The position numbers were made by a program. Positions 1 through 3,000 of a stretch of DNA of 4,389 nucleotides are shown piece after piece. Within the stretch, counting starts at the first letter, position 1, and every line of letters starts with the position of its first letter. This DNA comes from a virus (lineage: Duplodnaviria > Heunggongvirae > Uroviricota > Caudoviricetes), in the IMG/VR virus record IMGVR_UViG_2690316344_000010, positions 1 to 4,389 of that record; one strand, written 5' to 3'.

Positions 1-3000
1 CCCCGTCAGTAGCTGAACAGGAGGGACAGCTGATAGAAACAGAAGCCACAGGAGCACCTCAAAAACACCATCATACACTAAATCAGTAAGTTGGCAGCAT
101 CACCTAAATCCTGTATGCAGTAATCATTTCTCCATATTTATGGCGAGACAAAACACTATTGCTCGCAACCTGGAACAGCAGATCAACAACGGACGAAGTT
201 TTGCACAAATATCTCAGGATTTTATGCTTCAATTATCTTCAAATATAGGATGGAAAAAAGGGGCCGAAAACGCCCTTAAAAATAAAATCCATTCTCATTC
301 ATTTGTTGTAAATCCTGATGAATTCTCTTGCGACACACAATTTCTTAAGTGCCCAATAACATTATGCGTTCCAGAAAAAGGGGTTTTTGTCAAGAACGCA
401 CTGAACTCCAACATATGCACTCTTTATGATAAGTCTGCATTCATGAATCTCACAAGAGAACATCTACCCCACCCTCTCAGCAGGGAAAAGATAGTAAAAG
501 AAATGATTATTGAAAGGAATATGTGTTATTTTGACACCATAAGTCAGCATTTCATAATTATGGATGCAGACCAACAGAAACAGCATTGTAAATAAAATGT
601 AATAATTACATACTATTAGTGATTCTCATGCATCGTAAGCGGCTCGCCAGAACCGTATTGATATTTACTGAGCGCTCAGATCAACTTTCCATGGCAACAG
701 ATCGCGTTCCCGGTTTGCCGGCCAGTCCTGGATATGCTCCCGCCGACAATATTAATGGCCAGGAAATGTTTAAAACAATGATTCTGTTTCCTAACCATCA
801 AGTGTATATGCTGGCTCAATTACTCAATATCTATGGGTTGAGTTCTACCCAAAGTGGCTCTGTAGTCGCTTCTTCTTACAGTATGTTCAGGTGTTGCAGG
901 CACAGTTGTGGAGCGTAGATGTGTTATTGGTTTACCATGCTCTGGTACATAAAAAACGCCAGTGCCATGGTAACCTGATATAGAAACGTTAATTCCGCGA
1001 CGTTCAAACTCGGCATAGACGTGTTCTGCTAAAGAACTCTTTTGACCAAATAATGCCCTAGCCAACCAGCCGTTATTCATATTTGCGGATTTCTCTATTT
1101 CATCAGGAGAGAAGTCTTTGTTTTTTAATATGTTGGCTGAGTTACAGGATGTTAATCTGATATCATCAATCTCATGAAGATTATGTTGAACAATGCGGTC
1201 GACAATATCTGTCGGCGATAAAAATTCATCTCCACACTTAAGAAGTGGTAGACCAGCAGAACCATCCCCAGACAGATAAATTTTTTTGTATTTTCCTGGT
1301 GTTAAATCATCTGGCAGGATGGTTTTCATCTCTGTCGCTGTAATACTTATAGCTGCAGCAGCAACAACATCGCTATTACTTGATTGTAGATGGCTTTTAT
1401 TTGCTCCAGGATATGTAAACTCCATTTTCCTTTTATCAAAATCTTGTTTTGTAGCATCATTCAGGAATAATAAATCATACGGTTTTTTCCCCGTTGTGAC
1501 TCTTGAAACATTTTGGCCAAGAATATTAAGAGTATAGTCATTAACGGATTTCATTCCTAAAAAAACAAGTAATCCTTCTTTCTCTTGCGCTTTTTCGATT
1601 GTTCTCCCTGCTAAAGTTATTGGGATGGATTGAGATTGTTTTGTCGGAACTGATACGCTGGCGCTAATAGGTAGTAGGGTTCTTATGCTAAACATACAAC
1701 CTCTTTCTTAATTTTCGAACCTGTTTAGGATTCTGTGTAAATTCAAAATAAACCTGTCTGAACATTCCTAACAAACATCCACCTGACATGACAACAAAAA
1801 CCGGAGCCGGACTCCGGTTTTTGTGAAGCTGTCGGCTATTTCATTCCGCCAATATTTTCCCACGTCCCGTCAGCACGCAGGATTTGCAGCGGTCTTACCA
1901 CGCACTGTATCTGCTTTTTATCCGCATCCAGTATCACCACCTGCGTGATTACCCTGTCCTGCTCCGGGATAATGCCATTCTCATCTGACTCCAGAATGTC
2001 TGCCGGTCCCAGTCGCAGCTGTGCTGTAAGTAACTCCCCGTCTTCACGGTCATCATGCTTTCCGCAACCGCACAGACGCTGCATAATTTTTTTTAATATG
2101 TTCATGTCATTCTCCTGTTCTGCCTGTATCACTGCCCACTTCATCCAGCCCCTTAACATCCTGCCACGGCCCGTCACCAAACCTGACCTGCAAATGCTGA
2201 AAAAAACCCTGAACCCGTGTGGCATCTTTGGGGGCAAGAAAGGTCAGTCCGGTGATGAGTGCGCCATCTGTATCCGGGAACCAGCCATTGCTGTTTGTCT
2301 CAATAATGTTTCCCGGCCCCAGACGGAACCGTATTTGTGTCTCCCCCGGGTCGCCCTTCGGTCCCTGAGGTCCGGTTGCCCCCACCGGGCCAGCCGCACC
2401 TGTTTCTCCTTTCGGTCCCTGTGGGCCTGCCGGGCCTGCCGCACCGGTATCTCCCTTTGGACCCTGTGGACCTGCATTTCCCGTCAGACCGGTCTCTCCC
2501 CGCTCTCCCCTGTCACCTTTCGGCCCCTGCGGGCCTGCCGGACCAGCATCACCTGCCGGTCCCCGTTCGCCGGTTGCCCCGACAGGGCCGGTGTCACCGC
2601 GCTCTCCCTTATCACCCTTCGGCCCCTGAGGACCCGCGGGCCCCTGTTCCCCCTTTGGCCCGGAAGGTCCCACCACGGTGGGGATTCGGTTTACGGCCTC
2701 TTCCGCCGCTATCCTGCTTTGTTCCGCTGACCGTGCGCTTTCTGCTGACTCCCGGGCTTTTTCTGCTGCGGTCGTTGCATCCCTGGCTGCATTACCGGCT
2801 GCACTTTCTGCCGTCTTTCTTGACAATTCAGCTTCTGCTGCACTTTGTGATGACTCACTGGCTTTTTGAGCGGCCGCAGAAGCCGAGGACGAGGACGCAT
2901 CCTCTGACTGCTTTGCTGAGGCTGCACTTTCTGCCGCCTGCCGGGCTGACTCCGATGCATCCTCTGCTGAAGTATCAGCATTTGCGGCGCTCGCTTCCGC

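Follow-up and report, generated by a model that had tools for sequence, protein, structure and literature searches.

A collagen-like segment of 37 Gly-X-Y triplets in an EPclA-type side tail fibre gene of a lambda-like prophage

The DNA analysed in this study (referred to as the window) comprised positions 1 to 4,389 of the IMG/VR virus record IMGVR_UViG_2690316344_000010 (Caudoviricetes), and its central gene encodes, on the minus strand, a side tail fibre containing an unbroken run of Gly-X-Y triplets. The gene order was the C-terminus of J, Ail/Lom, the fibre gene, an open reading frame (ORF) of 89 amino acids (aa) that carries only the C-terminal PfC domain, a type III effector-like gene, and nleG7; the J-lom-fibre part was the same as the J-lom-stf order of lambda. 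The run at 2338-2670 very probably forms the collagen triple helix in a homotrimeric side tail fibre of the EPclA class, which occurs in lambda-like prophages of enterohaemorrhagic (EHEC)-type Escherichia coli.

Fibre gene and collagen-like segment

The fibre gene and its domains were located as follows.

2107..3420, minus strand: side tail fibre gene of the EPclA type, 437 aa, with its ATG at 3420 and its stop codon at 2107-2109.
3019..3420, minus strand: PfN domain, aa 1-134 (PF08400, E = 2e-67, profile positions 1-133 of 134).
2671..3018, minus strand: PCoil, aa 135-250, a low-complexity region of 116 aa rich in Ala, Ser and Glu, and the predicted proximal coiled-coil part of the shaft.
2338..2670, minus strand: Col domain, aa 251-361, 37 Gly-X-Y triplets (PF01391), the distal shaft and a predicted collagen triple helix.
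2110..2337, minus strand: PfC domain, aa 362-437 (PF06820, E = 6.4e-36, profile positions 1-64 of 64).

In the ORF listing, the call (2107..3426, minus strand) began two codons earlier, with GTG at 3426, and RefSeq, at a locus with 99.5% identity, described this frame as a 'prophage tail fiber N-terminal domain-containing protein' of 437 aa from the ATG at 3420. The Pfam search gave the order PfN, Ala/Ser/Glu-rich region, Col and PfC, and found no PF03406 (Pf2 repeat) or other distal Stf domain in the fibre protein. Residues 1-93 of PfN matched the collar domain of the Ur-lambda Stf (PDB 9e7m, chain 'Tail fiber protein', E = 1.6e-50); judged by its sequence, PfN is the collar domain, through which the fibre attaches to the tail. 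The composition of PCoil was dominated by Ala (38), Ser (24) and Glu (15), with Leu, Ile and Val together amounting to only seven residues. By analogy with the published protein described below, PfC is presumed to be the C-terminal globular domain for trimerisation and nucleation as well as the receptor-binding tip.

In the minus-strand translation, Gly occupied the first position in all of the 37 triplets (111 aa). A preliminary description of this DNA had reported an uninterrupted run of 36 triplets at 2341-2670; the continuity stood, while the count and extent were corrected, because 2341-2670 corresponds to 110 codons and omits the last residue of the final G-E-T triplet. The Pfam Collagen model (PF01391) scored 65.1 bits (gathering score 27.2; E = 5e-18), and a chance origin of the run was therefore excluded. 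The X position was filled by Pro in 18 of the 37 triplets and the Y position mostly by Ala, Thr, Lys, Gln or Arg, with Pro in Y only once; charged residues made up 22% of the run. The same description had pointed to frequent motif units and a high G+C content. Both were seen: GPQGPKG occurred five times (four copies of GPQGPKGD and one of GPQGPKGE) and GERG three times, and the segment contained 70.6% G+C against 48.9% in the window and 59% in the gene.

This architecture is that of EPclA, for which Ghosh et al. (2012; PMC3368898) described the order PfN-PCoil-Col-PfC and a common form of 437 aa with a PCoil of 116 aa and a Col of 111 aa. EPclA is present in many prophages of the O157:H7 strains Sakai and EDL933, an example being ECs2717 of Sakai (PMC3368898). 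Every sequence-level feature of EPclA was found in the window gene, namely PfN, PCoil, a single uninterrupted Col of 111 aa, PfC, and a lambdoid tail-fibre position; the domain order and the three lengths (437/116/111) were the same, and the GP(Q/P)-GPK-G(D/E) motif and the location in a lambdoid prophage were shared. The preferences of the run in X and Y agreed with the published EPclA profile, in which GPK, GPQ, GPA, GER and GET are favoured and Pro fills about 48% of X positions (PMC3368898). The published EPclA cloning primers matched the window gene at both ends (27/27 nucleotides (nt) each), and the TGTTATGAC motif was found at 3459-3467, 38 nt upstream of the fibre gene; the same motif lies 38 nt upstream of ECs2717, where it was proposed as a promoter (PMC3368898). 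No difference in kind was seen, only a few substitutions: in comparison with an O157:H7 copy (strain RV06), 11 of the 437 aa differed, one of these in Col. Across 5,426 complete E. coli genomes, places matching the gene numbered roughly 15,000. The closest genomic matches were from non-O157 bacteria (a human isolate with extended-spectrum beta-lactamase, O145, and O111). On sequence grounds, the window gene is a member of EPclA.

The physical properties of this protein class have already been reported. By circular dichroism (CD), size-exclusion chromatography with multi-angle laser light scattering (SEC-MALLS) and electron microscopy (EM), rEPclA was a trimer that dissociated on denaturation (PMC3368898). 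The Col-PfC fragment gave the CD signature of collagen (maximum at 220 nm and minimum at 199 nm) with a sharp, reversible transition at 42 °C, whereas the coiled coil had a separate transition near 52 °C (PMC3368898). Rotary-shadowing EM revealed a dumbbell of 55-62 nm, in which a thin rod of ~30 nm fits 111 x 0.29 nm, and PfC was a trimerisation module that re-nucleated the triple helix (PMC3368898). By analogy, these results support the proposal of the preliminary description that the Gly-X-Y run would form a collagen triple helix in a trimeric fibre, here a side tail fibre; the exact architecture is that of the measured protein, and CD spectroscopy, recommended there as a check, had already been published for rEPclA with the collagen signature (PMC3368898). 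The collagen segment of this class is thus already described, expressed and biophysically measured, and its length polymorphism is already tabulated (PMC3368898).

Length variation and DNA repetition of Col

Homologues were surveyed among the 120 best cluster representatives, and triplets were counted in those with both PfN and PfC. Fourteen triplet numbers were found (4, 8, 14, 15, 16, 19, 20, 21, 25, 26, 32, 34, 36 and 37). The flanks were nearly identical, gaps were in frame and located only within Col, and the triplet phase was kept in all variants. Variants with 15, 19, 20, 21 and 37 triplets were carried by contigs longer than 4 Mb, and complete phage genomes had 21 (YYZ-2008), 37 (BP-4795) and 38 triplets (Stx2_14744). 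Published Col lengths of EPclA are 63, 78, 81, 111, 114 and 144 aa, and the finished Sakai genome contains Col domains of both 111 and 81 aa (PMC3368898). The lengths, from 4 to 38 triplets, thus differed between related phages, as a comparison of triplet numbers across homologues had been expected to reveal.

The DNA of three shorter alleles was aligned to the window, from which they lacked 99 nt (26-triplet allele), 162 nt (19-triplet allele) and 261 nt (8-triplet allele). In all three, the best breakpoint fell inside copies of the GPQGPKG motif, and the junction was chimeric, joining the left copy to the right one with an ambiguity of 2-8 nt. The copies of this motif and the tandem repeats within Col were as follows.

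2611..2634, minus strand: GPQGPKGD, copy 1, containing the left junction of the 19- and 8-triplet alleles.
2512..2535, minus strand: GPQGPKGD, copy 2, from the motif count.
2449..2472, minus strand: GPQGPKGD, copy 3, where the 26-triplet allele has its left junction and the 19-triplet allele its right one.
2404..2427, minus strand: GPQGPKGE, copy 4, from the motif count.
2350..2373, minus strand: GPQGPKGD, copy 5, containing the right junction of the 26- and 8-triplet alleles.
2385..2475, no strand assigned: tandem duplication of 45 nt (5 triplets x 2) found with Tandem Repeats Finder (TRF; 84% identity, score 133).
2423..2441, no strand assigned: tandem unit of 9 nt, GGGCCTGCC x 2.1 (TRF), encoding GPA-GPA... 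on the minus strand.

Stx2_14744 had one additional GPA triplet at the GGGCCTGCC unit of the window, giving its 38 triplets. These alignments suggest that the alleles arose both by misaligned exchange between motif copies and by one unit being gained or lost. Since only in-frame events survive selection, ascertainment is biased towards variants that preserve the triplet.

A repeat search also found copies of 56 nt, 99 nt apart and 80% identical. The preliminary description had regarded the segment as internally repetitive DNA and as a substrate for slippage or recombination, and each of these views held in part. Degenerate repeats were present, but they did not exceed what the repeated amino acids impose: when synonymous codons were drawn at random from the usage of the Col domain itself, the five GPQGPKG copies were expected to show 81.5 +/- 2.1% DNA identity against the 80% found, and the longest exact in-register repeat was expected at 14.9 +/- 3.3 nt against 11 nt. 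With neither value above expectation, the repetition in the DNA thus follows from that in the protein, and the readings of the DNA as a recent tandem duplication or as a tract prone to frequent slippage were rejected. Likewise, the chimeric junctions agree with recombination between motif copies, while exact repeats of 11 nt or less do not make a strong slippage tract; the collagen tract is a weak slippage substrate. Two further candidates inside the coding region were treated as chance: an inverted repeat (2374-2392 / 2656-2674, 74% complementary) and a terminator-like match on the plus strand (2668-2683), of which kind there were two against 1.9 expected from shuffling.

Many discrete length classes, each with many members, were found among the homologues. 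It is rather improbable that the triplet number is a selected 'reach ruler', running from ~3 nm (4 triplets) to ~33 nm (38 triplets) and matched to the depth of the O-antigen or capsule layer on the hosts met by each prophage lineage. Under this reading, selection could also favour the complete synonymous scrambling between the GPQGPKG units, which would stabilise the length within each lineage.

Several other variants of the fibre gene were seen in passing. The length of the coiled-coil region also varied, Col beginning at aa 188, 210 or 251 (P0002 and P0008 among the homologues); these variants were internal deletions of 63 and 41 aa, and 41 is not a multiple of seven, contrary to the rule in the 2012 paper. 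In the homologue P0059 (on a 5.5-Mb contig), part of the coiled coil was read in an alternative frame (cf. the window ORF at 2709-3053, minus strand) before the reading returned to frame, reflecting either a double frameshift allele or a sequencing error. In ~30 genomes of Stx2a-converting phages (LC7278xx; Stx, Shiga toxin), the match to the gene of 1314 nt spanned 1313 nt, which suggests an allele frameshifted by an indel of 1 nt, comparable to the defective entries that Ghosh et al. named EPclA*. P0094, a fibre with the order PfN-Col-peptidase S74 (71% identical to the window protein, on a 3.5-Mb contig), was labelled 'collagen-like surface-anchored protein SclE [Streptococcus pneumoniae]'; this record is probably mislabelled or contaminated.

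Overlapping reading frames and neighbouring genes

Two long ORFs lay antisense to the fibre gene.

1945..2730, plus strand: spurious antisense ORF of 261 aa in frame 1, in register with the codons of the gene; stop-free 1789-2728.
2337..3197, plus strand: spurious antisense ORF of 286 aa in frame 3; stop-free 2304-3195.

The first stop-free stretch covered the downstream PfC-only ORF, PfC and Col, with a collagen share of 35%, and the second covered Col, PCoil and the start of PfN, with a share of 37%. Stops within Col numbered 0, 2 and 0 in plus-strand frames 1, 2 and 3, against ~1.1 per frame expected from base composition, and Col was the only segment open in two of the three antisense frames. 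It was open in the in-register frame because it contains no TTA, CTA or TCA codons. The attribution of the long antisense ORFs to the collagen repeat was therefore right in direction, but the repeat covered only about a third of each open stretch. Real genes at 1945-2730 and 2337-3197 (plus strand) and at 2709-3053 and 2244-2477 (minus strand) were rejected: none had a Pfam match, and their openness was due to composition.

The genes downstream of the fibre gene included two ORFs of particular note.

1836-2105, minus strand: PfC-only ORF of 89 aa, a short N-terminal peptide followed by PF06820 (E = 5e-36).
820-1695, minus strand: ORF of 291 aa matching PHROG 6583, 'T3SS secreted effector Ibe', over its full length (E = 7e-203).

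The PfC of the 89-aa ORF was 34% identical to that of the fibre itself. Its ATG lay 1 nt past the fibre stop (GGAGAATGACATG), with a Shine-Dalgarno-like AGGAG in the last codons of the fibre gene, and the ORF was found at each related locus opened. The equivalent ORF68 of Sp5 was reported to be dispensable and was seen as a potential 'reservoir' of variation in the tip (PMC5155283). Just downstream of the PfC-only ORF, RefSeq annotation indicated a frameshifted remnant of 67 nt of a tail assembly gene (window about 1769-1835, minus strand; from L001 5663-5729), and an intact gene for a Tfa-type chaperone was therefore absent beside the fibre. No Pfam or NCBIfam match was obtained for the 291-aa ORF, whose RefSeq name varied between genomes ('hypothetical protein' or 'secretion protein EspS'). 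Positions 1-104 of the window matched the end of IS1A, as carried by thousands of plasmids, with 100% identity, and homology to intact nleG7 loci began at base 105; from this alignment, nleG7 (ORF 140-595) lacks ~160 nt of its 5' end through an IS1 insertion. J, lom and the PfC-only ORF were intact within the window.

Between lom and the fibre gene (3437-3467, minus strand), a strong terminator-like hairpin of 8 pairs (7 of them G-C) was followed by TTTTTT, and the TGTTATGAC motif lay directly upstream of this hairpin. Expression of the fibre probably depends on anti-terminated late transcription rather than on a promoter of its own.

Homology to other phages covered different parts of the gene. 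Long-tailed phages of the Stx1a, Stx2a and Stx2c types, among them BP-4795, 2851, 2B8 and YYZ-2008, had the full gene at 95-98% identity. In short-tailed Stx2a phages such as Min27, TL-2011c and VT2phi_272, only gene nt 765-1314 (Col and PfC) were found, at 96-98%, as the end of an EPclB-type fibre, and lambda orf-401 shared only gene nt 1-350, at ~90% nt identity. The gene is therefore a mosaic of three parts, with a module boundary where the collagen segment starts. As far as the sequences allow, this boundary fits recombination between prophages, which was discussed by Ghosh et al. (PMC3368898).

Interpretation and comparison with known systems

Taken together with the published work on EPclA, these results suggest the following organisation of the fibre. 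Three chains would be set in register by the PfC trimerisation module and the Ala/Ser/Glu-rich coiled coil, and the 37 triplets would wind into a collagen triple helix ~30-32 nm long and ~1.5 nm thick, which may be stabilised by Pro in half of the X positions and by ~22% charged residues, hydroxyproline not being involved. The coiled coil of ~16 nm and the collagen helix would constitute a hinged stalk that keeps a distance of some 50 nm between the PfC tip and the PfN collar, by which the fibre would be anchored at the tail tip, and, like lambda Stf, the fibre presumably makes adsorption to the host faster. Length alleles may arise by misaligned exchange between the copies coding for GPQGPKG(D/E) and by the gain or loss of 9-nt units, a change that the segment would tolerate because the in-frame gain or loss of whole triplets leaves the helix intact. 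The Col-PfC block would be exchanged as a module between long-tailed and short-tailed Stx phages.

Several points weigh against this interpretation. The trimer and triple helix are deduced from published work with a near-identical protein rather than with this exact allele. A 2026 preprint cites the closely related lateral fibres of lambda_2B8 as not recognising BamA of MG1655. Part of the length variety may come from collapsed short-read assemblies, the 8-triplet allele being from a 3-kb contig, and the DNA repeats are weak (longest exact repeat 11 nt), so that the rate of length change may be low. Lastly, the copy may sit in a decaying prophage, given the IS1 end that cuts nleG7 and the tail assembly gene of which only a remnant is left.

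This last point leads to the alternative that the copy is a relic in a defective prophage, never assembled, with its repeat evolving neutrally, which we regard as unlikely. Many lambdoid prophages of O157 are defective. The truncation of nleG7 by the IS1 end at 1-104 and the 67-nt remnant would agree with decay, as would an IS1203 in the closest locus and the up to 16 places matching the fibre gene per E. coli genome. On the other hand, the ORF was intact at the canonical 437 aa beside equally intact J, lom and PfC-only genes, and the gene in the inducible, complete Stx phages BP-4795, 2851 and 2B8 was 95-98% identical. A decaying prophage would in any case leave the reading of the encoded protein unchanged.

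It is highly improbable that the run is a flexible, disordered linker between globular domains, without a triple helix. Hydroxyproline is impossible in E. coli, a single Pro stands in Y, and a related collagen-like shaft in a preprint on phi24B was unresolved by cryo-EM and called flexible; nevertheless, the Col-PfC part of EPclA behaved as collagen in CD, with its transition at 42 °C and its rod of ~30 nm in EM, and the Col of the window, one residue away from the O157:H7 copy, has 37 unbroken triplets whose phase the length variants keep. Equally hard to sustain is a bacterial surface adhesin comparable to Scl1/Scl2 of streptococci or Lcl of Legionella, instead of a part of the virion. Although the gene adjoins virulence cargo (Lom, NleG and the Ibe-like effector) and the collagen part of its product had weak NCBIfam matches to SclB, Lcl and SclA, these scored 88.4 vs 325, 86.7 vs 500 and 70.4 vs 400 bits, far below the cut-offs, and involved only the Gly-X-Y or low-complexity part; membership in the Scl/Lcl adhesins was accordingly rejected as driven by composition. 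In the translated sequence, neither a signal peptide at the start nor an LPXTG motif was found, the N-terminus is that of the lambda Stf collar, the gene is at the stf position after J and lom, and immuno-EM has shown the related EPclB, a protein required for infectivity, on the tail of Sp5 virions. Finally, collapsed repeats in short-read assemblies have very little chance of accounting for the variation as a whole: several short alleles are on contigs of a few kb, but the complete phage genomes, the contigs longer than 4 Mb and the two Col lengths of finished Sakai vary as well, and exact repeats of 11 nt or less are too short to collapse reads.

As a discovery, the segment, which is very probably the collagen helix of a trimeric side tail fibre, is of small importance; its value lies in annotation. 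The gene should be annotated as an EPclA-type side tail fibre, and the antisense and alternative-frame ORFs over it should be discarded. Fibres of the EPclA type sit on phages that spread genes for Shiga toxin and type III effectors, so that their host recognition is of practical interest.

Beyond EPclA, the nearest relatives are EPclB and the fibres of short-tailed Stx2 phages (933W L0121, Sp5 ORF67/ECs1228, Min27 ORF64 and phi24B gp61). These have the Col and PfC block (gene nt 765-1314) in common with the window gene at 96-98% nt identity; the last Col domain of Min27 ORF64 has almost the same sequence as that of the window, with 38 triplets, and according to a 2026 preprint phi24B gp61 has the same collagen-like shaft. 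They differ in having two or three Col domains split by a Pf2 repeat or an interruption, another N-terminal attachment region, and a podovirus tail.

Lambda Stf (orf-401/orf-314; Ur-lambda, PDB 9e7m) shares with the window protein the position after J and lom and a homologous collar domain, which in PDB 9e7m fastens the fibre to the tail where gpV and gpM meet (PMC12617516), and Stf and the EPclA-type fibre are both trimeric and hinged. In contrast, Stf has a shaft of coiled coil and a gp37-like distal part, a tip that binds OmpC and a chaperone, Tfa, but neither a collagen segment nor PfC, while the window protein has no Pf2 repeat; the homology of the window gene to lambda stopped at gene nt 350, and a distal shaft and tip of the Stf type were not found in it.

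The bacterial collagen-like surface proteins Scl1/Scl2 (Streptococcus), BclA (Bacillus) and Lcl (Legionella) also form a Gly-X-Y triple helix without hydroxyproline; charge and Pro in X stabilise it, and a neighbouring globular trimerisation domain nucleates it. Outside Gly-X-Y, they are unrelated to the window protein, which is without a cell-wall anchor, and the nucleating domain is N-terminal in Scl2, whereas it is C-terminal in the window protein.

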